From Nephila pilipes (lineage: Eukaryota), in contig BMAW01101096.1 in assembly GCA_019974015.1 (NCBI GenBank), positions 268,342-307,228 of the forward strand: DNA of 38,887 nt, in the 5' to 3' direction. How positions within the stretch are numbered: position 1 is the first letter of the stretch; the number at the start of each line of letters is the position of its first letter. The notes below the pieces were generated by a model. It saw nothing but the letters and a program-made list of their open reading frames with translations. It was not told where the DNA came from and did no database searches. This document shows positions 23-37,700 of the stretch, piece after piece. The position numbers were made by a program, and so were the translations under genes.

Positions 23-1160
23 AGTCAATTGATATAAGATGAATTTTCAGAAAAAGTTAACTGTAGATAATAAGTGATTACTTTCCCTTATATATCCATA
101 AAGATTTCTTTATTTTAAAATTAACATCGACCCTTATATTAATGCTTAATCAAGAATACATATCATTTTCTTTTGCCTCTTTTAGTCTTACATTTGTCTG
201 AATTACACAGACAACCTTTTCTATCAATATACTTTTATAAAAAGTAGTTCGCTTATTGATTTTTAAAGCTATATATATTAATTAACTTGAATAATAATTG
301 TATTTTGAATTAAAACTTGTAAGTTAATTTATTTACACCGTTTTTACCTCGATAGTTATAAAATAAAACTTAACTAAGCAATCTGATGAAGTAAGATTTT
401 GATAGAGAAAGAAATGAAAAAGACTTAAGAATAATGAAATAGCACACTAAAGATAGTAATAATGAAAGGGAAAATACATATAAATGCATTATAAAAACAA
501 TTACAAATATGTTTAGTAAGAAAAGTTCCATAAATATAAGAAAATAATTAATGATCTTAAAAAATATTGAAAAGATTATAGAAAAAATTATGATGAAAAA
601 TTCATTGTATTGAAACATAAAGAGAGAAAAAAAAAAAAACAAGCATATTATTTTAAGAATTCAGTACGGAATAAAATCGAAAGAAAATTTTCATGCATCA
701 AATTTCCACGAAATTTTAAAGTATTCATTACCACATGAAATTTATTCAAAAATTTTAAACGTATTTGTGTCAAAGAATCAAAAAAAAAAAAACATACTTA
801 TATTTAAATGAATATAATAAAAATAATTCAAATGAAAATCAAATGGTACCATACATGAACACATTTTGAAAAATTATCAAATTAGACATGTATTATTTAA
901 CTATTAAATAACTTTGAATAAAGGACAACTGAAAATTATAAATAAAACATGAAGCTGAAAACTACTTAGAAGCCAGCAAAATGTCATAATTATATAATAT
1001 TATGTGTACTTTTATGTTAACAGATGATACTTTCTTTGTGCTATTAGAAAAAGAAATTAAAGAAAACTGATATAGAAACATGAAGATAGTTACAGGATAT
1101 ATAATTTTTATTTTTTAAAACTTTTTCCGAAGAAAAATACTATAAAATATCAATAAATAC

Positions 1161-1400
1161 CTCATAAATACGTTGTCTCGGAAATAAAAGAATGCTCTTT
1201 TCTCTTTCAACTTATTTTCTCTAAGAGCTCCAGCATGCATTTCGAGTTCTGTTATTGATAAACCTTTTGGGTACTCTTTTACCCACTGAAGTTCTGGAGC
1301 TTCTGGTGAGTCAAAATTATATATCGTACCGTATCTGTCACCAATTAGACCAATGAAGAAATCAGATTTTTGAGCTTCCAGTAAACATAATTCAGCAGCA
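1161..1400 (-). CDS. Coding exon of an NWD1/NWD2-like gene (DUF4062-type N-terminal module). It is the 3'-most exon in the window, and the gene continues beyond position 1.
   Basis: Minus-strand ORF translates to AAELCLLEAQKSDFFIGLIGDRYGTIYNFDSPEAPELQWVKEYPKGLSITELEMHAGALRENKLKEKRAFFYFRDNVFMR. It is preceded by the acceptor ttttattttag (ag at 1402-1401) and followed by the donor GAG|GTATTT (gt at 1160-1159; an alternative donor lies at 1171-1170). Its first base completes the CG left by exon 3705-3881, giving Arg. The FIGLxGxRYG / ITELE motif pattern matches my recollection of NWD1 N-termini. Confidence 0.55.
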
Positions 1401-3704
1401 CTAAAATAAAAATAAAATAAATTACAAATAAAACACTTCGCGTAAAAGCATTTTAAACATGACATACCGTTTTCGTGTTTCAATAGTTAAAAAGGTTTTA
1501 ATTAAATTCAAAAATTAAACTTTCCTTCTAAATCAATAGACCAAAGAGTAGTTCTTAATATAAACTGCTTCAAGATAGCTAAGGAACAACGAATTTGTGC
1601 AAAACTGCGTTTCTGTCAATTATGAAATCACAGAAAAATAAGTATAGAGAGCATTAAAAAGGCAATTGTACTCTTCTATGTAAGAAGCAGAACACACGCG
1701 TTGTTTATTTATTCCAAATTTTAAGAAAAATCGCTGTCTTGGTTTCAAAAATATTAGTGTAAATGTTCATTTCTTAAGTCAAATACTGAAAAACAAAATG
1801 TCTGTTAGACATAATTTTAATGAGCATGTTCATGGTTGAGCAATTGAACATCTCAAGGAACGATGATTTTATTCGAATTTGCATACTAATAACGGTGTTG
1901 AAAAGTGTTACCTTACAGTCGAGAGTTTGAGCGAGACATTTTGCAAAAATATGATGGAGCCTAAAGGAAGAACACCATACTTCTAGAAGATTGATAACCC
2001 TAGCAGCAAAAAGGAACAGAAATCTTAGATATGATTCAAAAAGTAAATCAATTAATGACATCTAAACTATCATGAGTCTTATAATTCAGTACATATTTAG
2101 AAACAGAAAAGCGAGATTTTCATAAAATTAATACGCAAAATATTTAAAAGAACTGTTGGTGACAAATTGCTTATGATGAATGATAATGTAATACTTCAAT
2201 GGATAAAACTAATTTTGAGCACAAGGCAAGTTAGAATATCCAGGAAAAGAGAAAAATAATACTAAAAAAGCACCAGATATTAAAGAAAATAAATTTCAAG
2301 GTATCAAGCATCTTTCCATAATAAAAAATCTCTTTAAAAAGTAACAGAGCTAATAGTCACAAAAATGTTTTCATTAAATATAAAAATAAAAAAAAAAAAA
2401 AAAAAAGAACAATTGACGGAACTGCATATTTTTGTCACAGAAAATTATTCCTTTGTCTTTTTTTAGTAAAAATGGCTCTAATCATTCACTTCCTTTAACT
2501 TTGAGTTTATATCTCTGACATATTGCCATGAACCTGCGATGACGCTTTTCTGCGATGTTTCTCATATAATGGAGGAGAGACATTTACAAAGATTTCGTTG
2601 GTCAGCCAAGGAAACCTTAAGCAATGACTTTCGACCTCGGTGACTTCGCGAAAAACTAGGCGACAAAACGAAGGTTCTCCAAAATGCTGGAATCTCAACC
2701 AGAGAGAAAGTTAAGATTTTCTCTGAACTTTTTCAGTGGCGTAATACCTGGTCGGAGAGGCAGAAAATACGAGGAGGTGCGAAACCAGAGAATCGATTGT
2801 GATCGGTCGGCAATGGCTGAGTGGATCTGCCGAGGATTTGTCGTAACGAGGCTGAGTCAATTTGATAGGAAGTGCCTGTATCTTCCGGGAAAGTTGGAGT
2901 TATAGGGGTCCGTATGAAATATTGCTTGGAAATTTGTCAGCAGTGCGAAATAGTAAGCCGGTGAGCTGAACGTTATTAAAAGTGCTGTGTGACTGTTATT
3001 TCAAATGCTATTTAGCTGATCCAAACAAAAGCTGTATTTCCTGTTTGTGCTGCTAATTTGTTCAAGTTTTGCTATCTGTGTTCGTTTTATCCTGAATATT
3101 TGTGAATAAAGCGTCATTTGCCATTATCCTCCATGTGGGACTGATACCACTCATACGCGCACACGAGACTGGGGCACTTTCCCAACAACATATGATTGAA
3201 ATCGCGCGCACACTTCACAATTTATTGTGAATTTATGCTAATTTCGAAGTTATGAAATAAATTCTGAATTTCACAAATTACGAATACATATAAATTTTTC
3301 AACCTTCATAAACTTTAAAAGAAAATCCATAAATTATCTTATGCTATTTTATTAGTTACCTTTTCATCTGTTAAGGAAAAATACATTAACAAGCAAATTA
3401 ATTCAAAGCAATTTTTACATATATTGGATTTCGACAACTACGTTTTAGAAATCATGAAGATATTTAAAAAGCACAAACAGAATTCAAAGAAAAACAAAAA
3501 AATTAAACCTAAAATATTTTTTCTGTGTAAACTGTTTAGATTGTGCAGAAAAAATGACGAATGTATACAATGTCTTTGATTTATGACTATACAGTCAGCA
3601 ACATTTTATGCAAGTTTTGAATTTAAAAAAGTTACACGTTTTGATTAAAAATCTAGTTTTTTTAATACTTAGAAACCATGAATATCTAATAAAATAAAAT
3701 ATAC

Positions 3705-5829: not shown

Positions 5830-6680
5830 ACTTTAGCAATAGCACCAGTAAGGAAGCATGCTACGCACATATGAGATGCCCACCAGGGATCGTTTAAAAA
5901 CACGAATGTTCGAGTATCGGGTGCGATTTGAACGAAGTTATTGGCTAGTATGCAAGTTATTGTGATTAGAGATGCCTCCAATATTTACCCAGTGGTAGTG
6001 CAAGCAGTTGATGGACCTTGAGTGCAGCCTTATAGTAAACCTCAATGATGCAGCTTGGTCGAAAAGGTCTTCCCCTTCGTCAGAGTGATAGTGATATGGT
6101 AGTAGCTTGGTGTTGGCATCAGTGGATCAGGAGTCAAAGCCCATAAGACTTCTCCCACTGACCCCATGACATAGTCAGTGCCGATTGGATTTTTGCTGAT
6201 ATCAGTCAGGATGAAGAGTTTCCGATTAGAGGCGTATAATCTTCTGTGTGAATCCTGTTTCAGTCTCGTGCTAATGACTACCACACATGCGTGTGGAGGC
6301 CGATTCGGCATTTGTTATTGAATGGTATACGGCCATTACACAAGGTGTGAAATCGCCGTAACCATTAATTGCTCCCCACACTGTTACAACTCATATGACA
6401 GTGTGGAGAGTGATTGGTTAAGAAACTCGATCACGAGTAACCATCCTTCAAGGCACTTTGACGGTTCGCAGTTAAATAAACGATATTTTAACGCCTAATA
6501 TACTGTTCATGCTATTAAGTCGCCTAGGAGCTATTTTTCATCAAAACAATGCTGGGTCACATACAGCGCGACACTCCTATCAATGACTTCGAGGTTATGA
6601 CGTACTCTCATGGTTTACCCGGTCACCACATCTCTCGCCAATAGAGTTCTTCTGGCACATTCTTGGAGGGTAACTGTAGT
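5830..6680 (+). mobile_element. Degraded Tc1/mariner-superfamily transposase remnant (family A), inside the NWD-like intron
   Basis: Plus-strand frames give WIFADISQDEEFPIRG...CVWRPIRH, MTVWRVIG, IFHQNNAGSHTAR and WFTRSPHLSPIEFFWHILG, with stops in between. These are the hallmark DDE-region motifs of Tc1-like transposases (compare FQQDNAxxHTA and WPxxSPDLNPIEhlW). A G12 run at 6743-6754 lies near its end. Confidence 0.6.
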
Positions 6681-8417
6681 CGTCCCGGATTATACCACTG
6701 AATTAATTATCCAATTGCAAAGTTAACTGTAAAATCTATTGCGGGGGGGGGGGGCAAATGTAACCTAAACGAGTCGATGTTATATCCAGTTATGGTTTGC
6801 AAAACAGCCAGAGGCGACTTTACTACTTACTCACGTGAACCATTTTCATGCCATAACATCTTAATATATCGATCTTTAGCTCTAAATCTGTAATAATTTC
6901 CTCATCTCCTGATGCATTACTTACATGTAAGGTTTCGTGATTGTGGCTCGATTTCTTCTGGGTGAATATATATATTTTTGTGACATTGTATATATATCAT
7001 ATATCTTAACATATAAGTCATAAATATAATACATATTTATAAATATAGTAAGAACCTTTTATATAACTCAACTCATTTTATATTTATTGAAAACATGTTA
7101 ATAAAATTTGAGAAACAAATGCAATCTTACTTAATTAACTGTGTAGTGTTTCCACCAAGATAAACATCTTTACCATCTGAAGTATCAGAATAAGTAAAAC
7201 TGCAAAAAGAAGAGAACATAAAAAATAAAATGTATACATTCAATTATTTTTCACGGAACATGTTTCTATGTTATCAATAATAATGGCTAAAGTATTTATT
7301 ACACAATCTTATCAAAAGTCGATTATGTGTGTAACCAAGATCTTTCTAATTCCAGAGTTTTCATTTTGAACATGAACAACAAAATAACAATTCTAAAAAT
7401 TAACATAAATAGAAACCATGTATATTCTTTTACATGAATCTTAATTAAAATAAATAATTTTGAACCTAATAATATGTCGAAGAATTAACATAACATGATG
7501 TTTATAGATTTCAACAATGCGTGAAAAATATATTGAACAAACAATTTCCATTTTCTTTTCACCAATTGAATTTCAATGAAAGTGCTTTCAAAAAAAATTT
7601 AATTATATAAACAATACGTATAGGAAACTATTACAAAATGTTGCCTATGGAAAAAAAACTATACAAGCTCAAGAATCAAAATAATCCAACAAATTATTTT
7701 TCAGGTCAACATAACTTACACTGTAACTTTTTTTTAATTATACAATTCAATAAATCAATGAGACACATTACTTTTCCATGTTTCAATATCGCACAACTTA
7801 AATCGAAACAACTATTATTTCAACAATTTTCTTTACGTCATATTTTGCAGCGAAAAAATAAAAAAGTTTTAAGAATTCTGACGCTAACACATTTTCCCCA
7901 ATAACTTATTCATAATTAAATTTCTTTTACTATTTTTGAAGGGCATTTTTAAACTACTCTGTTCATTCATCGAGATTGAATAAAATTTTTAGTTCTTACT
8001 AATTCACAATAATTTAGTTATATTTACATAGATTTTTTTCTTTCTTTTTCATGGTTAAAGAAAGGCTAATTTCCTTCTAGACAGTATCAAGCATGTTTAA
8101 ACAAAATATACTAGATTCCCTTCCAATGCTAAATTCCGACATGTTAATTGTTGTTCCAAAAATATCAATGCATTTGTTTTCATGTTATGATTCCATAGCA
8201 GCTCAGTGTTACAACATACGTACGAATCATTCGGCTACTTTGACATATGCTATACATATTGTCATATAAATGCTGGAGCAGGTTGAAATGAACACACAAC
8301 AGATATCTAAATAACGTGATTTATTATCAGACCAAGAGCAGCTACATTGGCTGAGAACTCTTTTAGAATGAGAACACATGGGTTTATGTATAACATGAGA
8401 ATATTCCAGAACACCGC

Positions 8418-9400
8418 TCAGGAAACGTAAAGAATATTCTGGAAGGTCTTAGAAATTATAGCAATAAACAGAGAACAACTAAACAAAACTTTAACTAGAA
8501 TTTTTAATGTTGTTAGCACTGTGTTTTGAAACCAGGAAACTATCAGCACTGTTTTTTGAACTGTGTTTGAAATCATACCACCTTCTGTTCTTTTCTTGTG
8601 CTTCCAACATTCGTAATCTGCCCAGTTGTCTAGATTCTTCGGCTCTTGATAGTTACCTAGCAGAATTGTCCTTACGGTTTCTTCAGTCTGAATCGGGAAC
8701 ATAGTGACGAGTGTCTTCTCAGCTTTAAGCCCATGCATAAGATAAAACGGTGGTTGTGTCCAGATTTGTATGCAAAAGTAACAAAGGGAAATATTTCATC
8801 CAATCTTTCGGCTCAACTTCGACGTACATGGACAGCATGTATGTTAATGTCTTATTAAAGAGCTCCGTAAGCCCATTAATTTGGGGATAATAAGCAGTCA
8901 TCATTCGATGGATAACATTACAGAGATGATTAAGTTTCGCAACTAGTTTCGATTGAAACACTCCTCGGTCCTCGATTGTCCACGGTCTTTATTGATAACT
9001 CTGGGAGATAATGTACTCAAGGAGATATTTGGTTATTTCCGGGGCTTCAGCAGTAGGTAATGTCTTCGTGATGGCATAGCGGGTTAAGTAATCAGTGCAA
9101 ACAATGTTCCGTTTATGTCCCCTCAGTGACTTTGGAAATCATCCAAGCAAGTCTATTCCGATCCAATGGAATAGTACGATTGCAGGAGGGCTAGGTACTA
9201 AAAGGCTGAAATGGAAGGGCTTTTCTTCGTTGGCATCCACGGCAATGCATAACATATCGATGTACAATGCAATAGAAACCAGGCCTATAGAATCGTTTCC
9301 TCACGTTGTCATAGGTACTGACAAATCCTAAGTGGCCTGTTGTAGGTGCTTTACGAAAATATTAGAATATATCTGAATAGGAGTTTTGGAATGACCCTTA
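8418..9400 (-). pseudogene. Ty3/gypsy-like retrotransposon integrase remnant (HHCC zinc finger plus rve core), with frameshifts and stops
   Basis: Minus-strand translation contains CYALPWMPTKKSP (zinc-finger region), TDYLTRYAITKTLPTAEAPEITKYLLEYI and ...TAYYPQINGLTELFNKTLTYMLSMYVEVEPKDWMKYFP. These fit the integrase patterns YYWPxM..CxxCQxxK, D.FTKy.EA.P, and Y(H)PQTDGQTER.N.TL..ML. The reading frame is broken. Confidence 0.6.
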
Positions 9401-9425: not shown

Positions 9426-9447
9426 TTTTTTTTTTTTTTTTTTTTTT
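9426..9447. repeat. T22 homopolymer
   Basis: Direct reading. Confidence 0.95.
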
Positions 9448-9905: not shown

Positions 9906-9932
9906 TTTTTTTTTTTTTTTTTTTTTTTTTTT
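9906..9932. repeat. T27 homopolymer
   Basis: Direct reading. Confidence 0.95.
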
Positions 9933-10553: not shown

Positions 10554-11844
10554 ATGAATGAAATCAATATGCAGTTTGTTCTAGGTATGCGTTTAATTAG
10601 AAAAGACCATAATGCCTCGAAAAAGCTGAGTGCTGCATTAGATATGCTATGTTTATCCAAGTCAGCTTTCAGGAACTGTGAAAAGAAGTTGTTGAAAGTT
10701 ACAATACCTATTGCACGGGATTCTAGGAATACTGCAGCTTCTGAAATAAAAGAGACAAATCATCAGGAGGAGGGTTTGACAAGCTGTGGTGTATCTTGTG
10801 ATGGTACTTGGCAACGTCGAGGTCACACATCATTGAATGGGTGTGTAGCAGCTTTATCCATTGATACAGGTAAAGTTGTAGATATTGAAATCATGTCGAA
10901 GAATTGCCGCATATGTACTCGAAACAAAAGGTTAAATGTATCCAGTGATCACATTTGTTCGAGAAATCATTCTGGGTCATCCTCCAGCATGGAATCAGTC
11001 GATGCATTTTGCATCTATGAACGGTCTTACCATTTGCGACAGCTGAAGTATTCGTCCTTTTACGGCGACGGTGATTCACAAGGCTTCTCAGCAGTGAAAG
11101 ACATTTATGGAAAAAATAGTGTTTGCAAATATGATAACATAGGGCACATTCAGAAAAGAGTCGGAACTAACCTTCGAAAACTAAAATCAAGCCAGAAAGG
11201 ATTAGGTGGAAAAGGAAAATTTAAGGACAAATTTATTAATAAACTGCAAAATTACTACAGTATTGCAATTAGAAGCAATGTTGGTGATTTGCCGGGAATG
11301 CAAAGTGCTGTAATAGCAGCATTTTATCGCAGCTGTTCAGGAGTGGATCAGCCAATGCATGGCCAGTGCCCGAAAGGACAATTTAGTAGGTGCAAATATC
11401 ATCGTGCGGAACAAAAGTAAATGAAAAATGCAAAAGCCTGACTAAAATCATTGTTAATTCCCTCAAATCTACATATATTGATTTATGCGATCAAAGCTTA
11501 TTAAAAAATGCCTCCATGGCAAAACTCAGAACTCGAATGAATGCTTTAATGGTTGCTTATGGAAAATAATCCCTAAAGATGTATTTGTGGACCATGAAAA
11601 GTTTACTCTGGGAACTTATATATCTGTAATACATTTTAGTGATGGTTATAAGGGAGTGTTAAAGATATTTTATGCATTAGATGTGTTTCCGGGGCAGTAT
11701 ACGGTTGATGCTTTAAAAACTTCGACATTATTCGCATTGCTGACTTTAAACGACATTCATTCCCATCAGCAAAAATGGCAAGAAAAAAAAATTCGAAATG
11801 CAATAAAATCAAATTTCAAAAGAAAGAGAAAGAAGAAGGTGTGA
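10554..11844 (+). mobile_element. Mutator-like (MULE-type) transposase-like gene. It is split into two ORFs (10554-11420 and 11485-11844) by a stop and a frame change.
   Basis: ORF1 contains CGVSCDGTWQRRGHTSLNGCVAALSIDTGKVVDIEIMSKNCRIC ... FYGDGDSQGFSAVKDIYGKNSVCKYDNIGHIQKRVGTNLRKLK. ORF2 contains KKCLHGKTQNSNECFNGCLWKIIPKDVFV...GTYISVIHFSDGYKGVLKIFYALDVFPGQYTVDAL. I recognise this pattern from a widespread family of animal 'uncharacterized' proteins annotated with a Mutator-like transposase domain. The family assignment rests on memory, not on a database search. Confidence 0.5.
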
Positions 11845-12539: not shown

Positions 12540-13670
12540 CTTCCCGAAAAGGTAAGGCCGGAATTTGTGCACAGCTCATACGACAGTAAAATATTCCCTT
12601 TCTGTTGTGGAATAGTTTCTCTCTGCTTTTGAAAGTGCCCATAAGGCATATGCAATCACTTTCTCCTGTCCACCTTATAATTGTAAAATAATTGAGCCGA
12701 TTCCGTAACCACTAGCATCTATATATAGTGATGTGGGAGTCTTTTCGTCGAACAGTCCTAAAATAGAGTCGGAAGTAAGTGCTTTCTTCAACTTGTAAAA
12801 GGTAGTAGCTTGTTCGGGACCCCAACAAAATTTTGAATCCCTTTTCAACAGTTTCTAAAGTGATTGAGCCTGATAGTAAAAATCTTTGTTGAAACGGCGG
12901 TAATAAGAACAGAGTCCCAAAAAACTTCTGACGTCATGTAAATTCTTGAGTTGGAAAACAGCTGAAAGTTTTTACCTTGTCCGGGTCAGGTCGAACACCT
13001 TCTGAAAAAAGAAGGCCCAAAATTTTGATTTCTCGGGTGGCAAAGTAACATTTTTGTAGTTGTGAATGAGCCCAGATTCTAGGATGCAACTCAGAATTAT
13101 ACTTAACCTTACAAAATGTTACTCAAAGGTTTCGGAAAACACCACAACGTCATCCAGGTAACAGAGACACGTTGTCCATTTTAAGTGGCGTAGTAGATTG
13201 TCCATCATTCTTTCAAATGTTGTGGGGGCATTACACAGACCAAAAAGGGCATGACTTTAAGCTTCTGCAGTCTTTATGGAGTGATAAGAGCTGTCTTTTC
13301 ATGGTCAGCGTCATCTACCTTAATTTACCAGTAACCGGTTGGGAGGATCATAATCGAGAAAAATGCAGCAACATTTAAATAGTTTAGTGTATCGTCTATA
13401 CAAGTAGTACATGGTACACATTCTTTTCAGTGATGTGATTGAGGCGACGGTACGCAGAAGAGTCAACTTCCATCTTTATCAAAACAACTGGAAACGACCA
13501 AGGACTCTCCCAGACGGGTAAATTATACCGTTATCTAGCATCTTCTCGACTTGTGGTATTATGCGCTGTTCAGTTGATGACACTCTACGTGAATTTTTAA
13601 TGTTGTCAGCAGTGGATTCTGAACCCGGGAGCTCTCGTTCTGTTTACGAACTACCTCTGCGTCCTCAGTG
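12540..13670 (-). pseudogene. Ty3/gypsy-like pol remnant (reverse transcriptase and RNase H). It is 5'-truncated at the (TA)n / Tc1 boundary and probably belongs to the same element as the integrase at 8418-9400.
   Basis: Minus-strand translation contains IIYPSGSPWSFPVVLIK...YRRLNHITEKNVY, MPFGLCNAPTTFERMMD, CLCYLDDVVV, PDPDKVKTFQLFPTPKNLHDVRSFLGLCSYYRRF and DASGYGIGSILLQL.GGQEKVIAYALWALSKAERNYSTTEREYFTVV.AVHKFRPYLFG. These are canonical RT box and RNase H motifs. Confidence 0.7.

Positions 13671-13674: not shown

Positions 13675-13737
<63 letters not shown>
13675..13737. repeat. (TA)31 microsatellite
   Basis: Direct reading: about 62 bp of perfect atat. Confidence 0.95.
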
Positions 13738-13738
<1 letters not shown>

Positions 13739-13791
13739 TATATATATTTTTATTTTTTTATTTTTTTATTTGGTTTTAAAAAATTAATGTC

Positions 13792-13816
13792 TTTTTTTTT
13801 TTTTTTTTTTTTTTTT
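13792..13816. repeat. T25 homopolymer
   Basis: Direct reading. Confidence 0.95.
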
Positions 13817-13865
13817 CATTATAAGTTTTATTTTATAATGAAATAAGTAAGTTAATTATTATATT

Positions 13866-15303
13866 TTTTGTGCAAAAGATTTCCAAATCAATACAAATAA
13901 TACCATAAGATCCTCAAGATGCAAGAACATGAGTGATGTAAGCAAAACTTCCCAAAAAAATCAAAAGGATAAAAAGGAACTTTATTGGAAAAAGTAACAT
14001 GGAGCACAAAGCGACTGAAGGCCGAAACATCCATGTGATAGGTGTCCAGCCAGAAACTTCCAGCCTTTAGTAGGAGATATGATAGATATACAGGTTTCAC
14101 ATCATTTGGCCCTGCTGAGTATGAGCTTTTAGATGAGTTGTTGAGGCAATGCAACCCATTCGTCTTGTACCGAGAATTGGAGCTCCGGAATCGTTACTGG
14201 AAGTAAGTTAAGTGCTACCAAGCGTCTCCATAGAAAGTCCCATACATGCTTGATGGGATTCAGATCTGGAGACTTTGCCAGCCAATTCATGCATTCAATA
14301 TCCCCACTGTCCAACAGCTCTTCGACAGCTACTCCGCTATAAGTTGGTACATACTCTTCCATGGAAAGGAACTGTGGACCCATAGCGCCTCTAAAACAAC
14401 ACATACGGAAGGAGAATCTCATTACGATAGCAGGTCAAGGTGACTAAACCTCCTTCAAAGATATGAAGGTTGGTATGGAAACCAAACTTAAGGCCTCCCC
14501 AAACAAGAACACTGCAACCTACAAACCGGTCTCTTTCGTTGATGTTGTAGGGATTATTGCGGTTCTTCACTCTCTCCAGATGTATATGCGTCCAGAATCA
14601 CTATTCAGACTACATCTGTCTCATCCGTAAAGAGTACATGACCCTATCGGTTATCTGTCCAATTCTGGTGTTCCCAGCACCACAGAAATCGCCTTCTCCG
14701 ATAAAGGCATTAAAGGCACACACCGTACAGGTCGTCGAGCAAACAAACCACAACTGTGCAGCGCCCTAGACACGGTAAAACTGCAATTTCTCCCGCTGTA
14801 TACCGCCAGTTCCTTCTGACCTGTAGGGCAATATACCGGTCGTCCACTGACTTGGTTACTCGTGGACGACACAGCTGAACCGCTGGACAGCTGCTCCTGT
14901 AGTTTGAAATTCTCTCCTAAGTCGTGAAACGATGCTGCGAGCAATCCCGTATTCCGTAGTCACAATTCGACCTTCCGCTATATTTTCAATAATTCGACCT
15001 CATGAAAAATCATTGAGATGTTGTCTAACAGATTGACTGTTCGACATTTCACACAAAGGCAGAAACTCGGCGTCATTTCAACTAATACACGCCGTGCAAT
15101 CGCTTTTCCAGAAATTCCTAGTTTACTCCGCTGGCGTGCTTTAAACCGCTTCGACACTGCCGCATTATGACCAGTGCATGTCTCCCCCATGTGCTACCGT
15201 ACCTCACCTTAGTTAATCTCCTGATTCGTCTTTCAGTCCAATTGGCCTCTTCATTCCGCTGATATGCTAATTTTTTTGACTTTGTCCTTAATTTTTGCAC
15301 ACC
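13866..15303 (-). mobile_element. Tc1-like DNA transposon, copy 1 (family C). The transposase on the minus strand is disrupted, and one TIR is partly deleted.
   Basis: The right end CCTTAATTTTTGCACACC (15286-15303) is the inverse of the TGTGCAAAAATTAAGG seen intact at 34157-34172 in copy 2. Copy 1 retains only TGTGCAAAAG at about 13869-13878. Minus-strand ORFs 14129-14422, 14651-14944 and 14978-15190 give SPDLNPIKHVWDFLWRRL, RALHSCGLFARRPVRCVPL and an N-terminal HTH-like segment. These are typical of Tc1 transposases but lie in different frames. Confidence 0.7.
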
Positions 15304-15584
15304 AGTGTATCTATAAATATCATGCATAAATACGAATTTAAATCATGAACCGTTGCAGAGAACTCAACTGTTTTAATTCTGATACTCTCTGAATTACATA
15401 CACAGAACTAACTAAAATATTTCAAGGTAATAACAGAAAATAAATATGCCTTCTCTTTTAAAGAGAACTTAATAATTTCAAATTTCCGATATAAGATTAA
15501 AAATAGTTCTAACTTTCAAACATAAAAGATTAAAAATTCGAATTGTCATTGAAAGAAATATTTTTTTTCAGACTTTTAACATAC

Positions 15585-15733: not shown

Positions 15734-16189
15734 CTAGAAATAATAACAAAAAAGGCATTATTTCAAATGAATTATTAAAATATACAAAAAAGATTAAAAG
15801 GATTATGTTTATTAATTCAGGAAATTACTGAATATTTTTTTAAAATATATTTGCTACTCAAATTGCTATAACCCTAAGAAAATTACATAACCATTAACCA
15901 CAAAAAACATTTTTGCTCTCAAAAATTTGTTATTTCAAATGACAAACACATACTTGTGCAGCCCATAGCAAAAATTTATTCAAAAACAATAACACTTCTT
16001 TATCTAAAAGATTAAATGAGCGAAATGATTTGCAATTGATTTGTTTTGTATAAACTGCACGACACTGAAAATGCAACACCAAGAAGAAGTGAGCAGAAAA
16101 TTATGCAAATTTCAGAGTAAACGCACGACACCAAGTTATATAAATGATGTGAAATACGCAGCTCTCCAGTTTACGTTGAAGTAGATATA

Positions 16190-17110
16190 AGTGAAAAAAT
16201 CTGCAGAATGTTCAATTTTCGCAAGGGAAATCATCGTAGAAAATTTGTTCTTGTCTCAGAGGACGCGAGTAATAGCAGAGAATACCAGGCCGTCGTCAAT
16301 GGAGGCAGTTCCAGCAGACAGACGATTTTATGAGGGGCATGGTGATAGGACTGAGAAAGGTAATGAAGCAAATCTCAGCTGATACACACATGGACGCTTC
16401 CACAGTGCGCTGGATGTGGCGAAGGTGGTTGGAAAAAGGAAATGTGGCCAGTTTGAGGGGTGCCAGTCAGCCAGAGTAACGTGAACATGCGTAGACTTTC
16501 GTCGACAAGCGGTGGCGCACCCGGAAACCTCTTATACCTTCAATCTGCAGCATGTTCAAGACACCCTGGACGACGAAATGGCACACGGTCGTGTTCACAG
16601 TGAGTCAAGCTTCTGTTTCTCCAATAATAGTTGCCGGGTACGAGCGTGGCGCCGACGTCGAGACGGGTCCAATCCGGCAGCAATTGTGAAACGCCCCACC
16701 ACGCGACAATGCGGCATCATGGTTTGAGGCGTAATTGCGTATGATTCCAAGTCACCTCTAGTTCATTTTCAGGGTCCTATGAAGGCCCAACGATACGTGG
16801 ATTATGTACTGTGGCCGGTGACACTCTATTACCATCAGGTAGTGCACAATGCCCTTTATCAGCAGAATAACGCCCAACCGCACACTGCTCTCATCAGCCA
16901 ACGTGCTCTGTAAGGTGTACAGATGCTTCCCTATCCATCGTTCTTTTCTTATCTATCACCAATTAAACCCATTTGGAATGTGATTGGACGCCATTTGTAG
17001 ACCCCACCGCTGCCGCGTTCAGAAGACGAACTGTGGCAAATGGTTGACAGGGGATGGAGGGCCATTCCTCTGGACGCCATCCATACTCTCATTGACTGTG
17101 TACCTAGACA
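16190..17110 (+). mobile_element. Tc1/mariner-superfamily transposase remnant (family B), degraded
   Basis: Plus-strand frames give ESSFCFSNNSCRVRAWRRRRDGSNPAAIVKRPTTRQCGIMVW, MKAQRYVDYVLWPVTLYYHQVVHNALYQQNNAQPHTALISQ and ...INPFGMWLDAICR. These correspond to the R.RVWR, MNAQRYvD.IL.P and FQQDNA.PHTA motifs of Tc1-family transposases. The frame is broken and the terminal inverted repeats are not resolved. Confidence 0.6.
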
Positions 17111-19232
17111 TGTTGCTTCGTGTATCGCTGTCCACCGTGGTCCTACAACCTACTGTGTCTGCACTGTTTCTCTCTGTATTACACATATCTTTTTGAAATA
17201 AAGATAACTTATTGTTTGTTGCTGTCTCTCTCTGTTTGCCGAGTTTCATCACTTTCTGGCTACTCCTTGTTATTGCATTTTCAGGGTCCTATAGTGTATA
17301 TCACTCTCCAATATATCAACAATACATAAGTAAAAGTGAGAGGGGATAATAGAGACTTGATGCTTCGTATCTCTTAAAACCTTTTAATCAAATCAAAGGG
17401 GAGAATTGAGCTGTAATTATGTACAATTAGTGAAAAAAAGCTATTCCTAAAGCTTATGGTGTACAAAGAAATATGTTAAATGAATAACTGTTTACATAGA
17501 GTATTTAGATTTGAAGTTACTTATCCACAATTTTATATATACGTAATTCAAAAACTAAAAATACAAAAACGACCGATTAAAATATTTACTTTCCTAAAAA
17601 TGGAAATAAAAAAATCAATATAAAAAAAACCCACGGCAAACAAAAAAATATCCAAGATTGTCCAGTTATATATAAATTCAGCCAATTAAAGCATCGATTT
17701 CAGTAAAGAAATAAATTAATACGATTTTCAAAAAATGACATAATATTATTTTGATAAGTTCCATAACATACAAATAATTCAAAAAATAATCCATTAGCTT
17801 ATTTCATAAAGTATTTGTGAGCACTAACCTGCGTCATATTTCACTCCCCTTTCCCCCGATAGCCAAACGTGTATCACGCTTTATAGCTTGAAGGTAACTA
17901 AATATGAGGTTAACACTTTAACTACAGTATATTTCCTCAGATAAGAAGAGGTGTAAATTTTCATCAAGATCTTTAGTTATAGCATATATCTGTCCTATAA
18001 GACGACTTCCAAATTATCAAGGGCCAATAAATTTTGTTCAGATCCGCAATCCTCATCCGGAATAAATTTTATTTTCTTACATCTGGCAGCACTGTCTATA
18101 GAAACATGTGCCGAATCATGAACACACATGTATTTCTTACAAGTACCTCTATACAAATCCGTCAAAAAATGTGGGATTTCTAATGCTATGGATAGCACTG
18201 AGGACGATTAGTTATGGGATACTGAGGAGAAAATGGAAATCGATTCGCTTAGTACAGAATGTGGGACCCATAAGACGAGTTTCTCAACGAGAGTGAAGAT
18301 GCATTTGAGGAGTTATTTGCCATAGATAATAAACAATGAATAACTTCTCAACAACGAAAGTAACAGTATACTTGAGGAGTGCTTTGGATGATGAGTGAGT
18401 GAGAGTGGATTTTAATGGCGCAAGAGCGACATATGGCTATGATGCGCCTAACAAGGTTAAGGGGGGGAAATAAAAACATGAAATACAAATCACACATTGA
18501 AAATACAATTACGTAAAATCACGAAAAAGCTAAAAACATTCGAGTAAAAATGCACAGCTTAAAAATAGCAAATTTAAAACTAATATGCAAGGCTTAAAAT
18601 AGTAAATGAAACTGTTGTTGATTATGCGTAGCTTTCCATACAACCATTATTTTCGGATAAGTTGCTTAGAACGCTTTAAATGCAGTGATGTTTCCATTTC
18701 GTCCGCAGCATCAATCAACGAAGAGTCATCGATGTCATATAAAATCATGTCATCGTCGTCAAGGGCAGGTATGAGAGAACCTTTTTTGGGTGCATGTGGA
18801 TTCATTGTAATTGCTATCTGGGGTTTATTACATATCGTGAGATTTATATAAGCTATTTTTATAAGTTATTTTTTCTCTGGGCTTTTTTTGAGGTCTATGT
18901 TTTAGAGCCCTATCAAGTAAGGGAATGAAATATTTAGATTAAGAAGAAGTTTTGGGTGTGGTTTTTTTAGTAAGAGGTAGAATGCATGTCTGTGAGGAAG
19001 TTGTCGATGTGGAGACATTATTTATGGAGGAAGAGGAAGGCAACGGGGTGGAGGAAAAAGATAAAAGTTTCAGTACCTGTAAAGGTGGACATAAAACTTT
19101 CGTAATGTTTGGGTCAGTTTGGGTGGTAGCACAGAGAGAATATTTTGCAGCCTGGGCATAAGAATGAGATACCTGTGAGACTATTTGTTTACGTGCTTCG
19201 ATATAAGAGATGTTTTGAGTTGTTTTTATTTC

Positions 19233-24051: not shown

Positions 24052-24083
<32 letters not shown>
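24052..24083. repeat. T32 homopolymer
   Basis: Direct reading. Confidence 0.95.
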
Positions 24084-27000: not shown

Positions 27001-27316
27001 GGTGACCAATATTATATCGCATTATTAATTAATTATTGTTATCGTTAATAAATTTGAAATTACAATTAGAATATTAGAAATTAAAAAAAAGATTTGAAAA
27101 CGGTTATTTTATTTTTATTTAATTTCAAAGGTTATTTTTCATTCTATGAAAAAAATTCTACATAAAATCTTATCAAATGCATGGTATATTTAAATGAAGT
27201 TTTTCTCTTTTGTTACAAAATTTTAAATACAATTCTTATTTCTTTTTAAATGCTACATATTTCAATTTAGTTGGTATTTGTTTGTATTTACTATATATGC
27301 ATACTTCTGTTTACAG

Positions 27317-29911
27317 ATGAAGTTTTTCGACAAAATTTGTCTACTGCTTTTTCTCACAAATGTGGATTCTCGACTTAAAGAGCAACACAGACCATGCTCA
27401 TTCAACCCATTATGCACATGTTCAAATGGAGGACCAGACCTAGGATCTGTATGTTGTCACAACATACCTTTTATGACAGTTCCCTCCCAAATCAACAATT
27501 CTGCAATTTACATAATGAGTCTTAAAGAAAACAAATTACGCTTTCTTGAAGATAATAGTTTAAATGGAACTGGGCTATGGAAACTTCAAATTAACAACAA
27601 TCTTTTAACAGATTTACCCTCTAATGCTTTAGCTGGACTGGAGAAAACATTATCAATTCTAGATTTAAGTAAAAATAATTTAGTAAGGATACCTAGAGAA
27701 GCAATACAGAATTTAGAAAAACTCAGTAATTTAAATTTAGCTGGCAACAAAATTACCTACTTAAACAGTGACGATTTTCGTAATCTAGGTAAGACATTAA
27801 AACTTTTAGATTTGTCAGAAAATGCTCTAATGCAAGTTCAAAATGATGTATTTCGAAATATGATATCATTAGAAGTTTTAAACCTTGCGTATAATTCCAT
27901 AATTTCCATAGATGACATTACATTTCACGGAGGGTTAAATAACTTAAAACATATAATTTTAACAGGAAATCAGCTGCAGCAGATTCCATTAAATGCACTA
28001 GCTAATTTTAGAAACATTAAAATCGTGAACTTGAATGAAAATTTGATATCCAGTATATCTGAGGGAAGAGAAATAAGAAATCGCATCTATCTCGATGAAT
28101 TACATCTCGAACATAATCTTATTAAAGAGCTAACAGCAGAAAGTTTTAGACTTTTCAGTCAAGTAGATCGCATTTTTCTAAAAGGAAATCCACTCTCTAT
28201 AGTTAACGACACTTTTCTGACTACTAATACAACCGAAATTTACATGCCTTACTGTTCAATATCAGTTATAACACATACTGCATTCCTCAGTTCAACACAT
28301 TCACTACAAGTTCTTGATTTAAGTCACAATGAGTTAAAAGAATTTCCAGTCTTACCACTGACCAGATTGACAAAACTCTCGTTAGCTGGAAATTTGATTA
28401 AAGAAGTTGTTCCTGAAGATATAAAATACTGTGGAAATTCTTTAAAGTACTTAGATATCACAGGAACAAAAATGAGTGGTTTGTCTGAAGAGAGTATGAA
28501 TTATTTACCAAACGTAAGAGAACTTTCTTTCAACAAACAATACCCTGTCGTTGGTGCGGAATCTTTACAAAATATTAGTCCCTCAATGGAGAAACTTAAC
28601 ATGGTCCAATGCTCCATAAAAGTCATTGAAAATGGAGCATTTAATAGATTAAGTGGCTTAAAATCATTGGACTTATCTTACAATACAATATCGAAAATTG
28701 GAAATACTACTTTTAAAGATATAAAGCACTCATTAGAAAAACTTATTTTGCACAGTGCTCTAAGAATATCGATATTCCCTTATAAAGCATTGAATTCACT
28801 TTCAAAGTTAGAATATTTAGATGTAAGCAGTAATGACATCCAATATCTACCATATAACTCTTTTGTTTCATTTCAGAATTTAAGGCATTTAAATTTAAAT
28901 CACAACGAATTAAAAGATTTAGATTCAAATTTTGTAAACGATATACATAACCCAAACCTTGCAGAAATAAAAGTGGCATTTAACAAAATAACCTCTTTGA
29001 AGTCATATACTTTTCGAAATTTGAGAAGTTTGATTTATTTGCAACTAAACGATAATCTCATTGAATTCATCAGAAAATCTGCATTTCTCGATTTGGATTC
29101 GATAATGATAATTCGGTTAGAGGGCAATTCAATACAAACTATAGACAGTGAAGCCTTTCAAAATTTACCAAATATCCAAGTAATTAATCTTGCGTACAAT
29201 AAGTTATCCTCTTTTAATCTAGAAGCCTTTAATCAAGTCGGACGACTATCAACTTTAAGAATTGATGTCAATCACAACAATATCCAGAATTTAACAGGAG
29301 ACTATACGGTAACACATACGTCAAGTAATATTAAGCACCTTAATTTCAGTCATAATAACATATCGTATTTGGATAGCAATTATTTAGACCCAATAAGATT
29401 ATCAGTTACTATCTTAGACTTGAGTTACAACAGACTTGTGAATTTAACAACTCTTGCTTTTACAAATATGGCTCATCTGCAAACACTGATCCTCTCAAAT
29501 AATATAATTAGTAAAATAGATGAAGATGAATTTAAAGGTTTAAGATCCATACAAGTGTTAGATTTATCAATGAATAATCTAAATACTCTCCCAGAAAATT
29601 TATTTGAAAAACAAAAACAACTGAGGATATTTTTATTACATCATAATGAAATCGACGAATTACCAGAAGACATTTTTAAGGCAACTATTCTGGAACAGAT
29701 AGATTTGTCCTTTAACAACATTGAAGAATTCCCTTATTATTCTATATCTCAAATCAAAAACACTTTGCAATTTTTGAACTTAGCTGGAAATCAAATAGAA
29801 GCTCTTAATTTCAGTAGTATAATGTCTCTGCAAAATCTAAGGTACTTGAGTCTTTCACGAAATCGACTGTTTATACCCAGTTCTGAAGAAGATTTACAAC
29901 TGCCAAAATTA
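27317..29911 (+). CDS. chp: Chaoptin-like LRR cell-adhesion protein, coding exon 1 (signal peptide, N-terminal cysteine cap and about 30 LRRs)
   Basis: An 865-codon open frame starts MKFFDKICLLLFLTNVDS, which is signal-peptide-like, followed by PCSFNPLCTCSNGGPDLGSVCCHNIPF. It then runs through continuous 24-residue LxxLxLxxNxL repeats. Internal blocks such as YMPYCSISVITHTAF, INLAYNKLSSFNLEAFNQVGRLSTLRIDVNHNNIQNL and NIKHLNFSHNNISYL match what I recall of Drosophila chaoptin. The start codon is directly preceded by an acceptor-like tttacag. The donor is AAATTA|GTAAGT (gt at 29912-29913). Confidence 0.8.
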
Positions 29912-30829
29912 GTAAGTATTACATTATTAATTATATTCAGAAAAAATAAATGTTTGTGTTTTCAATATTTAAACGCTTTATTAAATATAATTGTAAGTAT
30001 TTAAATGATTTTAAAAAATATTTACAACCAAACTGGTAAAAAGTAAATAATAATAATTTTATCAACCTCAAAATTTCTTCTATTCATGTTTAAGCAAAAT
30101 GAAATTTCTTTATTATATAAGTCGAATTGAGAAATACTTAATTAACAAATTAACAAAATAAAACATATATAAATAAAAAAAAAAAATTATGGCTGAATTC
30201 TATAACATTGCTATTTTTCATCAAAGTAAAAATAAAATGTAATAAACAACTATGAGCTTTTGAAAATGGGAAAAAATATATATATTTGAAAAATTTAAGG
30301 GGAAAAAATGAAAAAATATTGAAATTTGTGTGACGGCATTTCAAAATATTTTAATCATAAGCTGGAGATAAAAAGTTATTAGAACACAACATTTAAATAA
30401 AAAACTCAAAATTCATATTTTTTTGTAATGTTTTAAAGATATTTTAAATGATACTAAAAATATTAACTTATACAAATAGATTTTATTTGACACATTATTA
30501 GACCATTTTCGTAACAGTGAAATTTAAAGGTCACCAATGAGCTTATATATGTATATCCAATTCATTATATTCAATACTTTGTCTACATATGGAAAAAGAT
30601 GATGATATTAATGGGATAAATTCTACGATGATGAAAAAAATAACATTTATCTAATGCATTTTAAAAGAAATTGTTTATCATACTTTAATACAAATAAGAC
30701 TTCTAAGAAAAATTAACTATAATACATATATTTATATTGTTTTCAGTATTTTATACAAATCACAGTTTTATAGGAATATTAAAAAATTCATAATTTTTAA
30801 ATGAATTATCGTTTTTGTCTTTTTTCTAG

Positions 30830-32817: not shown

Positions 32818-33141
32818 GTATCCGGAAAATACCTGAAACATTTAAAATTGTCAGGAAATCAATTGGATTGTGATTGTGAACTTTTCTGGATATGGGAATG
32901 GTTGAAAGAATATGAATACGTGAACAAATGTGAGGAAAGGATATGTGAAGAGACTTATTTACATGATTTACGAGAAACCAAATGCGTCAATATGAATAAC
33001 AGATCAATCATAAATGTATTTAAAACAGATTTACAATGTGTTTCAAATGGAACTCCAGCAGAAAACCCAAAAAGTATATTACTTCACTTCTTCATAAGCA
33101 TCGTTTTCATGCTATTTTACATAAAAGTGGTTATAATCTAA
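32818..33141 (+). CDS. chp: Chaoptin-like gene, terminal coding exon (last LRR, LRRCT cysteine cap and a hydrophobic GPI-signal-like tail, plus stop)
   Basis: The acceptor is tttttttcctattacag. Translation is VSGKYLKHLKLSGNQLDCDCELFWIWEWLKEYEYVNKCEERICEETYLHDLRETKCVNMNN...ILLHFFISIVFMLFYIKVVII*. The CDC...C...C cap plus 'DLRETKC' matches the chaoptin C-terminus. The tail is hydrophobic with no cytoplasmic domain, consistent with a GPI anchor. Confidence 0.75.
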   Translation, partial: VSGKYLKHLKLSGNQLDCDCELFWIWEWLKEYEYVNKCEERICEETYLHDLRETKCVNMNNRSIINVFKTDLQCVSNGTPAENPKSILLHFFISIVFMLFYIKVVII

Positions 33142-33668: not shown

Positions 33669-34155
33669 AAAAAATTTGACAGTGAATTTCTTTAACAGTA
33701 AATAAGGATTCAATGAAACCTACTTCTAATAAATAATCAATCAATCAATGACACACACTCAAAAAAAATGTTTTCAGGATCAATTAAAAAGGCTGAAATG
33801 AGTACATAAAAACAGTTTGTATGCACTATGTAATAAATAATTTCAGAAAATTTATGATTGCCAAAATCAATGAAAATTAAACTCTAGATATTATATTTAA
33901 GTCACAAAATAACAAACGAAATTCAACAAGGAAATTTAAAATTTAACTGTGTAACAAACATTAATGTTGATTTTTTTAAGTCAAATCTTCATGAAAGTAC
34001 AAAAATTTAATAAACAAATAATGAACATATTCTTGAAAAATGAATTTTATTTGATGGCATAGACAATAAGAAATATTCATACTTCACATAATAGTACAAT
34101 GGTCCCACAAACCATTCGTAGTTTTAATGACCGGATATTATAAATACACTGATTG

Positions 34156-34792
34156 TGCAAAAATTAAGGACGAGATAGTTTTTTCATTATAACGTTGCCC
34201 AAAAGCTTTCCAAATCAACTCACATAATACCATAAGATCCCCAAGACGTAAGAAAAAGTGTAATGTAGGCAAAACTTACTAAAAAAGAAATCAAAAGGAT
34301 AAAAAGGAACTTTATTAAAAAAGTAGCATGGAGCACAAAGCGACTGAAGGCCAAAACATCTATGTGACAGGTGTCCAGCCAGAAACATCCAGCCTTTAGT
34401 AGAGAATATGATTTTCCCTGACTTCTATGCAGGTTTCATATCGTCTGGCTATGCTGAGTATTATGAGGTTGTCAATGAGTTGCTAAGGCATTGCAGCCCA
34501 TTCGTCTTGTACCGCCAATCGGAGCTCTGGAATTTTTACAGGCGGTACGTTACGTGCTGCCAAGCATCTCCCTAGGAAATCTCATACATGCTCGATGGAA
34601 TTTAGATACAGGAGACCTTGCCACCAATCCATGCGTTCAATATCCTCAATGTCCAACAGCTCTTCGAAGGCTACTGTGCGATGAGCTGGCACATTGTCGT
34701 CCATGTGAAGGAACTTCGGAACTTAAAGCGTCTCTAAAAAGACACGCATAGGGAAGGAGAATCTCGTTATGCCCTTAATTTTTGCACACCAT
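34156..34792 (-). mobile_element. Tc1-like transposon copy 2 (same family as 13866-15303). It is internally deleted and non-autonomous, about 0.64 kb, with both TIRs present.
   Basis: TGTGCAAAAATTAAGG at 34157-34172 is the inverse of CCTTAATTTTTGCACACC at 34775-34792. Region 34209-34763 aligns at about 90 % identity with 13895-14427 of copy 1, for example the shared AAATCAAAAGGATAAAAAGGAACTTTATT and ATGGAGCACAAAGCGACTGAAGGCC. It then jumps directly to the terminal CCTTAATTTTTGCACACC, which implies an internal deletion of about 855 bp relative to copy 1. Confidence 0.7.
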
Positions 34793-37700
34793 TGAATGAG
34801 AAATTAAAACATAATAAATAACCTTCAGAGCCATTATCAATACTTATGATAATCAAGACTTTACTTTTGTGCCCTTTATGAAAATTGTAAATTTGAAATT
34901 GAATTTATTCAAAAATCTGGTTGATGCCTTCACATCTGCTGTAATATTTCAACTTACCTTTAGACATTAAATATTTCATCAGACATATAAAAATTCGAAA
35001 GTGGTGAGTTAAATTTAAAATAATTGGATTAATAATAGAACAGAATTACAATAAGATGCGATTTAAAACAAATCTTGAAAATTAAGAATCCTATTTACTG
35101 CGGAATAATGTTTTTTAATTGTTTGATTTTCAAAAACTTCTGAGATTTAAACATAAATAAATATGATTAAGTCAAACAATTTTAATTGCCAAATGGGCTT
35201 TAACTAAAGGAGGAAATTATGTTTTGTAATATTAATACTTTTTAAACAACTGTATTTTAATAACCGTAAGTTTAAATGTTTTTATACACTTAAATCAGTA
35301 AGAATTTCAGAAGCTCTTTCTACAAGCAGATTTCAGATGAGCTATGTTAAAAAAGAAGGGGAAAAAACAGAATGTGCATATGACATTTATTCAAAAAATT
35401 CATTTTGTCTCCTAAAATAGGAACATTTACTCACCTGCAATAATGAATTTAGAGTCACAACGAAATAAATTGATTTTTTTTCCCAAAAATATAAGGAAAT
35501 ATCACGGATTATATGTATTTAAAGTAACTTGCTCTACGTAAGAATTGCAATTCTTTTCTCAGAATCAAGAGGAAAAATTTGACAAAAAAATTAAAAATTG
35601 CATATTTTTTATAATCAGCGCCGTAGTACAGTAATATGACTTATTAGTATAAAGCATAGACTTAGGTTAGTATTTTCTGTATTATTTTATGCTATTTAAA
35701 GCTTTAACAATTTCAGAAGGAAAAAAAAGAGAGAACGCTTTTATAGGATTATTTTACCTTTTTAAAACTTTTTTCAAGAGTTCTTAACGTTCGACTTAAC
35801 ACAAATTATTTTTAAAAAAGTTTAATGCTTTAAAAATATACTTGATCTTATAAGAGTCAAGGGAAAAAGCGAATAACAAATTTTATTTAAAAAGTTATTA
35901 TCGCTTTAATTAAAAATATTATTCGAAATACTAAATGCATTAAAAATATGGCTTCAAAATGAAAGTTTTAAAACATAGAAAACATCAAAATCTCAAGTGG
36001 GGACGAAGTGAGAAGAAGGAGGCAAGTTGGCATGAGAGAAAATGCATGTTAGCTAAATTGGTTTTAGTGAAGTGACATAATTAGTACAAATGCTTAAATC
36101 ATCTACAATTTTCTTTCAATACATTGAAAAAAATAAAGACATAATGAATTATTACTAATATTTAAATTTTTGTAAAATTTAATTTGTCAATTTTTCATAA
36201 TCATAATCAATTTTTGTAAAAGTGTAATTTCAGTTTTACACAATTAAAAACAACTGCATTTATAGGTTTTAAAATATAATGCACACAACGTGAGTGCGAG
36301 ACCTCAAAAAATATCGATCTCGGTTAATCAAATGCATAAATATTTCTATTTAACAGAAATATGTTGCATTTTTCCAAAAAAATGCATATTTTTATTCTTG
36401 AAAGCAACATTTAAAGTACTTTCCTTTACAGTATTATCAGATTAAAAAGATGTAAAGAGAAGAAAAGAAAACATTTATGATTAAAAGTATTTTTTCCATC
36501 TAAACAGAGAAGGGAAATACTATTATTCTAAGTTATAAGTTTGTTTGTTATTAAATTCAAACTTCAATACTTGAATAGCCAAATGCAAATAAATGTACAT
36601 AATTCAATTTTTTTTAAATATGTGTATATAAAACATAATACTTATAAATAAGTACAAGTTTAATGAGATTTATGAAATTTTTTAACAGATTTATTAATCC
36701 ATTAATAAAATAAATCTTCTCCACTATAAAAGGATATAATGCGAATTTAAAGTATTGCAGAATATTTTTATATTTATACTAATCAGTGCTTTCGTTATTT
36801 TAATGCACGTAAAAAATACAGTTTGCAATATTGAAGCATCTATTTTAAGGAATACGTCATTCATAAGTTTATCATTAATCGAACCAATAAATCACTTAAA
36901 AATGTAAGATCGAAAGTTGTATGCAAAGTTTTGCAAAGAACAGATCTAGCCATAAAAGGTGCTCTTTTTTTTATAATTATAATTAAATTACTCAATTAAA
37001 TATAAGAACTGAAGTAAACGATGAAATACCGAGAAATGGACAATAGTAAACTGTTCCGATATTAAAATTAAAGCAAACGATAAATTATTAAATTGAATAT
37101 ATTTAAGCTAAATGTAATTAAAATTGAAGCAAACGATAAAAAATTGAAAAGTGATCTGGTACGTCAAAAGTGATTCAACTAAAACAATAGCCCCTTGGGT
37201 AGCTAATAATATTACCTCAGTAGCAAATAAACATTTTATTTATGTGACATATAATAACTATTTAAATACCATTGACACACACAAGATACAAAAATTCTAT
37301 AGCAAAAGTCTCGTGTGTGAAAAATGATAACATTTTCTGAAATTGCATAAACTACTTCTAATCAGTGAAATAATTATATAAAATGCTTGTCCCAATAGAA
37401 AAATGATGCTAGATAGGAGGAGGAAAGATAACTCTGAAAGAGATAAACATAATATGAAACGCAGAGATGAGCAGGTTGAAAGACAAAAAGAACAAATGAA
37501 CGGTATAACATGTTGTTTGATAAGCGGAACAATAAAGAAAATGAAAAAAAGAGAAGGTTTATACATGACACCCGAGAGCAGGATGTTCCTCCTCTTTCCA
37601 AACCAGCAGGTTTTCTTTTACAGCCACTCCCCTCCCTAATCAGGTTTCACCACTTCTATGCAGTCGTCATTGGTAATCGAATCTACTAAATACGATTCGA

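Follow-up and report, generated by a model that had tools for sequence, protein, structure and literature searches.

The DNA analysed here, referred to as the window, is a 38,887-nt stretch of contig BMAW01101096.1 of the golden orb-weaver spider Nephila pilipes, with the composition of AT-rich eukaryotic DNA. A 908-aa open reading frame at 27278-30004 is 99% identical to Nephila pilipes chaoptin, and the annotated chaoptin protein maps to three exons (Table 1), with its first 18 residues not located in the window. By this match alone the host would be placed as Nephila pilipes or a species very near to it. The few amino acid differences suggest that the annotated protein comes from another individual, haplotype or assembly. 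About 1 kb past the chaoptin stop codon lies a short transposon relic, here called copy 2, and a longer relic related to it, copy 1, is found 19 kb away.

Tblastn detected four Tc1-like relics in the window, namely copies 1 and 2 and two that belong to other families. One of these occupies 16053-17296 (+), ~740 bp from copy 1, between TA dinucleotides at 16051-16052 and 17297-17298; its inverted ends are imperfect (41 nt, 16049-16089 and 17260-17300, 78% complementary), and its transposase is decayed, with stops and 29% identity to residues 148-341 of P0006, the intact reference transposase described below. The other, at 6137-6697 (+), is strongly decayed, with several stops and 26% identity to P0006 residues 121-300 (tblastn E = 4e-6). 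At 10554-11420 (+) a 288-aa reading frame remains open and matches positions 71-357 of the Mutator-like transposase profile PF20700 (Pfam, E = 2e-50), followed at 11485-11844 (+) by a 119-aa frame with no Pfam match; a MULE of comparatively young age may occupy the region 10554-11844. Segments 8498-8537 and 13591-13630, ~5 kb apart, form a 40-nt direct repeat of 83% identity (GAATTTTTAATGTTGT.AGCA.TG...), perhaps a piece of some other repeat family, and a 122-aa frame at 1115-1483 (-) has a weak Pfam match to DUF4062 (E = 4.6e-6, just above the cut-off).

Table 1. Coordinates of copy 1, copy 2 and chaoptin in the window.
Feature	Position	Strand	Remarks
Copy 1, dead near full-length Tc1-like (DD34E) element	13866..15307	-	1442 bp, conservatively recognisable part; may reach left to 13768
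Copy 1, 5' TIR	15284..15307	-	CACTGGTGTGCAAAAATTAAGGAC; 24/24 to the family consensus, then TA at 15308-15309
Copy 1, transposase pseudogene	14067..15047	-	codon-by-codon reading of the MAFFT alignment with intact elements
Copy 1, candidate decayed 3' end	13768..13825	+	16/24 TIR match at 13768-13791
Copy 2, internally deleted, non-autonomous derivative of the same Tc1 family	34147..34794	-	648 bp; flanked by TA (34145-34146) and AA (34795-34796)
Copy 2, 3'-end TIR	34147..34171	+	CACTGATTGTGCAAAAATTAAGGAC; 23/24 to the consensus, with one mismatch and one inserted base
Copy 2, 5'-end TIR	34771..34794	-	CAATGGTGTGCAAAAATTAAGGGC; 22/24 to the consensus; sole remainder of the element's 5' part
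Copy 2, deletion junction	34769..34771	.	AAATTAAGG-GCA-TAACGAG in transposase orientation
Copy 2, transposase C-terminus remnant	34396..34768	-	codons ~226-347; 70% amino acid identity to P0006
Chaoptin, three exons	27314-29926, 30830-31624, 32815-33138	+	99.4-100% to the annotated Nephila pilipes protein

Copies 1 and 2 are both relics of one ordinary Tc1-like (DD34E) family of the Tc1/mariner superfamily. Fragments of a Tc1-like transposase can be read in three minus-strand frames of 13760-15320. A Pfam search of the raw broken frames of copy 1 returned only DDE_3, as a weak, sub-threshold match (E = 0.028). The stitched translation of copy 1 matched 2119 database proteins, the best of them 347-aa proteins of Trichonephila clavipes annotated as 'Tcb2/Tc1 transposase' (E = 1e-145, ~60% identity), which carry the domains PF01498 and PF13358. 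The specific family is undescribed in the literature searched, which gave only genome-level counts of TcMar-Tc1 elements and a general mechanism for the origin of MITEs.

The reference set consisted of 16 short contigs (L001-L016) coding for P0006 (347 aa) and P0012 (374 aa), both of them intact relatives. On each of these contigs the element is bounded on both sides by TA followed by CACTGGTGTGCAAAAATTAAGGACGA, and complete intact relatives from other spiders measure 1551-1553 bp, with TA on both flanks and perfect TIRs of 26-28 bp (formed in L008, L011 and L019). The catalytic triad of P0006 is D158, D249 and E284; the last two are separated by 34 residues, which is the DD34E arrangement. 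The family thus combines TA target-site duplication, CAGTG/CACTG TIR ends and DD34E spacing, the marks by which the Tc1 family is recognised, and its closest intact relatives have the N-terminal paired-like HTH (PF01498) and DDE_3 (PF13358) domains of a Tc1-family transposase. In the intact 347-aa transposase (the P0006 cluster; L001-L008), Stegodyphus mimosarum (P0244) and Trichonephila clavipes-type sequences share 97% identity, and contigs of numerous unrelated sequencing runs and metagenomes also encode a protein identical to P0006. Such a distribution suggests either recent horizontal spread of the Tc1 lineage among distant spiders or spider DNA contaminating the samples.

The family TIR, CACTGGTGTGCAAAAATTAAGGAC preceded by TA, is of Tc1 type and 24-26 bp long, and the 16-nt terminal inverted repeat previously described as common to both copies is its core. 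This core, TGTGCAAAAATTAAGG, occurs exactly three times in the window, at 15286-15301 (-), 34154-34169 (+) and 34773-34788 (-), against 0.19 occurrences expected by chance, and none of 100 dinucleotide shuffles reached three. TIR-like near-matches at 25863 and 25872 (17/24 each) were rejected as an unrelated short palindrome, CAGTGCAGTG. Because the true termini in intact relatives read TA followed by CACTGG, copy 1 ends at 15307 and copy 2 spans 34147-34794; these ends correct the element limits in the preliminary description. The right terminus of copy 1 reads …CACCAGTG and is followed by TA, and that of copy 2 reads …CACCATTG and is followed by AA. Both copies fit TA target-site duplication, with TA next to the 5' end of copy 1 and the 3' end of copy 2, and at the remaining end of copy 2 a dinucleotide one change off TA. 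In copy 1 the TA is legible at one end only, the other end being unreadable. Just outside the TIRs the sequence is alike at both loci (15308-15321 and 34134-34146), reading GATATT(T)ATA(A/G)ATA beside TA, and most intact relatives are inserted in contexts of ATATA followed by CACTGG, which suggests an insertion preference for TA within alternating AT.

When aligned with MAFFT to the intact 1551-bp elements of L008 and L003, copy 1 is 80.6% identical over the whole element, and tblastn with P0006 covers residues 1-340 in three frames of copy 1. Its 5' TIR is perfect, and the 5' UTR is present along with the entire coding region. The transposase pseudogene, 66% identical to P0006 at the amino acid level (212/320), carries seven frameshifting deletions (1, 37, 2, 1, 1, 2 and 10 nt), one 9-nt in-frame deletion and five in-frame stops, which bears out its earlier description as a frameshifted, near full-length relic. 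Two catalytic residues have been lost (D249 to E and E284 to K), and the triad now reads D, E, K with its spacing kept.

The loss of about 45 bp of TIR at one end of copy 1, also described previously, agrees with our alignment, in which clear homology ends at ~13866-13872, ~46 nt before the expected terminus. Farther out, separated from the clear homology by an AT-rich insert of ~41 nt, lies a candidate decayed 3' end (Table 1). Its outermost 24 nt read ATTTGGTTTTAAAAAATTAATGTC, and all eight mismatches to the TIR are G/C to A/T; they are followed by T25 (13792-13816) and, beyond it, by CATTATAAG, a match to the subterminal sequence TTTTTTCATTATAA in copy 2. Across the window's 77.7 k positions the TIR is matched at 16/24 or better in just five other places, and 0/5000 local dinucleotide shuffles reached a 16/24 match at this candidate end. 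When the expected 46-nt 3' end was aligned with gaps to the flank of copy 1, local shuffles reached the score in 1/1000 cases with the L008 end as query and in 52/1000 with the copy 2 end, and other AT-rich segments reached the Smith-Waterman scores in 28/392 (7%) and 74/392 cases, respectively. The L008-end query thus stood out from the shuffles and the copy 2-end query did not, and against AT-rich sequence of the window neither did, which makes this control equivocal. A decayed TIR remnant of copy 1 at 13768-13791, an idea conceived after the data had been seen, is at most plausible on this sequence evidence. The degraded end is abutted by a (TA)31 microsatellite (13675-13737) and by the T25 run, and further homopolymer A/T runs of 20-32 nt are present at 2382-2406, 9426-9447, 9906-9932 and 24052-24083.

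Copy 2 retains 24 nt of the 5' end and the last ~620 bp of the element, and its description as an internal-deletion derivative that kept both TIRs holds. The junction joins position ~24 of an intact element to position ~935 (codon 226), with microhomology of at most 1 nt and up to three ambiguous bases, and its 5' breakpoint lies 0-2 nt from the TIR boundary, leaving the TIR untouched. The missing DNA amounts to 910 bp compared with an intact element and to ~858 bp compared with copy 1, which has deletions of its own. The breakpoint given in the preliminary description is correct, as copy 2 jumps from 34769 to 34771 and the equivalent positions of copy 1 are 14424 and 15283/15284. The transposase remnant (123 codons) has one frameshift, one 3-nt in-frame insertion and two stops, and it still shows the motifs MDDN and NSIEH and retains the second D and the E.

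Pairwise alignment confirmed that the two loci are homologous and have terminal repeats in common. BLASTN aligned 34200-34769 with 13873-14424 at 465/573 identical positions (81%, 24 gap columns, E ~1e-123), and the right ends, 34769-34790 and 15283-15304, match at 21/22 positions. The identity is thus well short of the roughly 90% reported earlier. Under the 80-80-80 rule the two copies fall, as a borderline case, within one family, since 81% identity extends over 573 bp or 88% of copy 2. One 59-nt BLAST match passes through a TIR into the flank (15284-15337 against 34171-34114, 83%), as might be seen if the pair arose by segmental duplication of host DNA and not by independent insertions. 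However, beyond the TIR this match covers just ~13 nt of AT-rich sequence, the GATATT(T)ATA(A/G)ATA motif noted above, and it joins opposite ends, pairing sequence outside the 5' end of copy 1 with sequence outside the 3' end of copy 2. The predominance of ATATA contexts among intact relatives also fits a target preference, and the BLASTN comparison gave no further flank homology between the two loci. With flank homology lacking, segmental duplication was rejected, and we regard its probability as negligible.

To place the two insertions in time, we compared their divergence with that of intact elements. Over the shared 3' part copy 1 and copy 2 are 80.9% identical (K2P 0.22), and they are 82.4% and 81.8% identical to L008, respectively, so that the distance between the copies is about as large as the distance of either from an intact element of other spiders. 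We then scored differences by codon position, using only sites where two intact, selected elements agree. At positions 1, 2 and 3, copy 1 differs at 14.9, 12.1 and 11.9% of sites and copy 2 at 13.4, 12.4 and 12.6%, an estimate that uses two outgroup elements from other hosts and, for copy 2, only ~120 codons. Between the two intact elements the differences at these positions amount to 11.5, 8.9 and 27.4%, a profile that reflects purifying selection. The flat profiles of the relics, with ~12-13% private differences per copy, indicate neutral decay after inactivation, and 72/107 of the private changes in copy 1 are G/C to A/T.

Within the shared region 37 changes are private to copy 1, 38 are private to copy 2 and six are shared, where ~2 would be expected by coincidence, and the private decay is nearly equal at ~10.5% and ~10.7% of conserved sites. 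The K2P distance of 0.22 between the copies is approximately the sum of the two private decays, so the whole pairwise distance is explained by independent decay from nearly the same sequence, beginning at about the same time. Equal neutral decay in turn indicates that both are old insertions of similar age; this age is a relative one. The earlier suggestion that the family was active relatively recently does not survive these results, given 81% identity, flat private decay, and stops and frameshifts in both copies. In the two copies neither near-identity nor an intact transposase was found, nor the derived changes of a parent in its offspring, any of which would have marked recent activity or direct descent.

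The preliminary description had further paired a dead element with its own deletion derivative. The copies do belong to one family and copy 2 is deleted, but the direct link was overstated, as copy 2 has the ancestral residues MDDN and NSIEH where copy 1 has MEEY and NPIKH, and private changes (37 and 38) far outnumber shared ones (six). Local hopping is known for Tc1/mariner elements, and copy 2 could in principle descend directly from copy 1, for instance through abortive gap repair once copy 1 had excised or been copied, and have hopped 19 kb while the family was recently active. The shared orientation of the copies, their spacing, the near-equal private decay and the slight excess of shared derived changes can all be read this way. 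The recency in this reading is contradicted by the divergence, the codon-flat decay and the disabled reading frames of both copies, and nothing specific ties copy 2 to copy 1, since any two copies of one wave would share the pattern. Proximity weighs little in addition, because a related genome holds roughly one Tc1 relic per 7 kb: Trichonephila antipodiana contains 332,152 copies or fragments of TcMar-Tc1 elements, 7.18% of its genome (PMC7976613). In such an abundant family, two relics 19 kb apart need no special explanation. We consider a recent parent and offspring very unlikely, while noting that the data are compatible with copy 2 having been made from copy 1 when both were young, as any two members of one wave look alike.

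Both loci are very probably fossil insertions of one DD34E cut-and-paste transposon, siblings from one ancient wave and not a recent parent and its offspring. The active element would have been ~1.55 kb long, with TIRs of 26-28 bp starting CACTGG and a single gene for a 347-aa transposase (Tc3-type helix-turn-helix plus DDE_3), and would have inserted at TA. Copy 1 would have inserted as a complete or nearly complete element, and the copy 2 form would have lost the ~910 bp that lead from the inside of the 5' TIR to codon 226, most likely through interrupted double-strand-gap repair after excision or through end joining. Tc1/mariner and P elements provide the background for a mechanism of this kind. 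The proposal draws on established knowledge of cut-and-paste elements together with the work on mosquito MITEs (PMC3814204). With both transposase-binding ends in place, the product could then have been moved in trans. Both copies would subsequently have decayed neutrally, by ~10-13% per site and under a strong G/C to A/T bias, to the point where neither can now encode or respond to a transposase.

As read, the junction of copy 2 would fit gap repair, end joining or an unrelated deletion in place, and it discriminates none of the three. The last of these would have struck a full-length insertion long after it arrived, as ordinary genomic loss unrelated to transposition. The genome does delete DNA from dead elements, as the eight deletions of 1-37 nt in copy 1 attest, and timing is indistinguishable from one copy. 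A single loss of 910 bp nevertheless far exceeds any other indel in either copy, and a stop within 0-2 nt of the untouched TIR would be an unlikely outcome of random placement. We judge deletion in place to be somewhat unlikely, and the breakpoint at the TIR boundary speaks mildly for a derivative kept mobile by selection and against a chance deletion at a later time.

Copy 2 could also belong to an amplified MITE family, an undescribed Tc1-derived one in Nephila pilipes whose 5' end would be the bare 24-nt TIR and whose many copies would carry the same junction of TIR (24 nt) and codon 226. Copy 2 has the size expected of a MITE (648 bp, below ~800 bp), both TIRs, TA-type flanks and a dead 123-codon remnant, and its 5' breakpoint coincides exactly with the inner boundary of the 24-26 bp TIR, as selection for continued mobility would leave it. 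MITEs are documented to arise from Tc1/mariner elements by such internal deletion (PMC3814204). On the other side, no second copy with this junction was found within the window, and the junction is free of the 6-8 bp of microhomology reported for MITEs derived from Ozma. When public metagenome contigs were scanned for the 24-nt TIR, a search uninformative on MITE amplification, eight loci were found, all full-length or single ends, with TIR pairs of 1526-1551 bp and no short derivatives. Membership of copy 2 in such a family is unlikely on balance, and copy 2 is 'MITE-like' in size and TIRs only, since what defines a MITE is one homogeneous deletion form amplified to high copy number. Were many copies with this junction to exist, 24 nt of one end would be enough in cis for this spider Tc1 lineage, and the locus would offer a dated example of MITE birth beside a sibling full-length relic.

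These findings fix the exact boundaries and the TIRs of one Tc1 lineage that is abundant in nephilid spiders and supply a reference structure for it, and they show by example how private substitutions that are flat across codon positions separate old decay from recent activity. They also remove the suggestion of a recently active Tc1 family, or of a MITE origin freshly caught, at this locus. Beyond annotation their importance is small, as the pair are ordinary ancient fossils of a Tc1 family.

At the level of family architecture the closest familiar systems are Caenorhabditis Tc1 and Tcb1/Tcb2, which have the same CAGTG/CACTG terminal motif beside TA. The name Tcb2 on the spider proteins is only an annotation transferred by similarity. 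The Ozma element of Aedes aegypti and its MITEs Gnome, Elf and Goblin (PMC3814204) resemble the pair in that an autonomous-type element is accompanied by a short derivative with both TIRs and some internal sequence. The Ozma-derived MITEs are present in many near-identical copies with 6-8 bp of junction microhomology, whereas copy 2 is one old copy with at most 1 nt. The closest known relatives are the 347-aa 'Tcb2 transposase' elements of Trichonephila clavipes, T. clavata and Stegodyphus mimosarum (P0006, P0016 and P0034; L001-L008), in which the first 24 nt of the TIR, the TA duplications, the DD34E spacing and the order of 5' UTR, one intronless ORF and 3' UTR are all the same. DNA identity between these elements and the window copies is 80-82%, and amino acid identity is 66-70%. 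In contrast to the Trichonephila copies, which are intact and numerous and form clusters of 526 and 1030 members at 90% identity, those in the window are dead and ~18-20% diverged, and they stem either from an older wave or from a Nephila lineage of their own.
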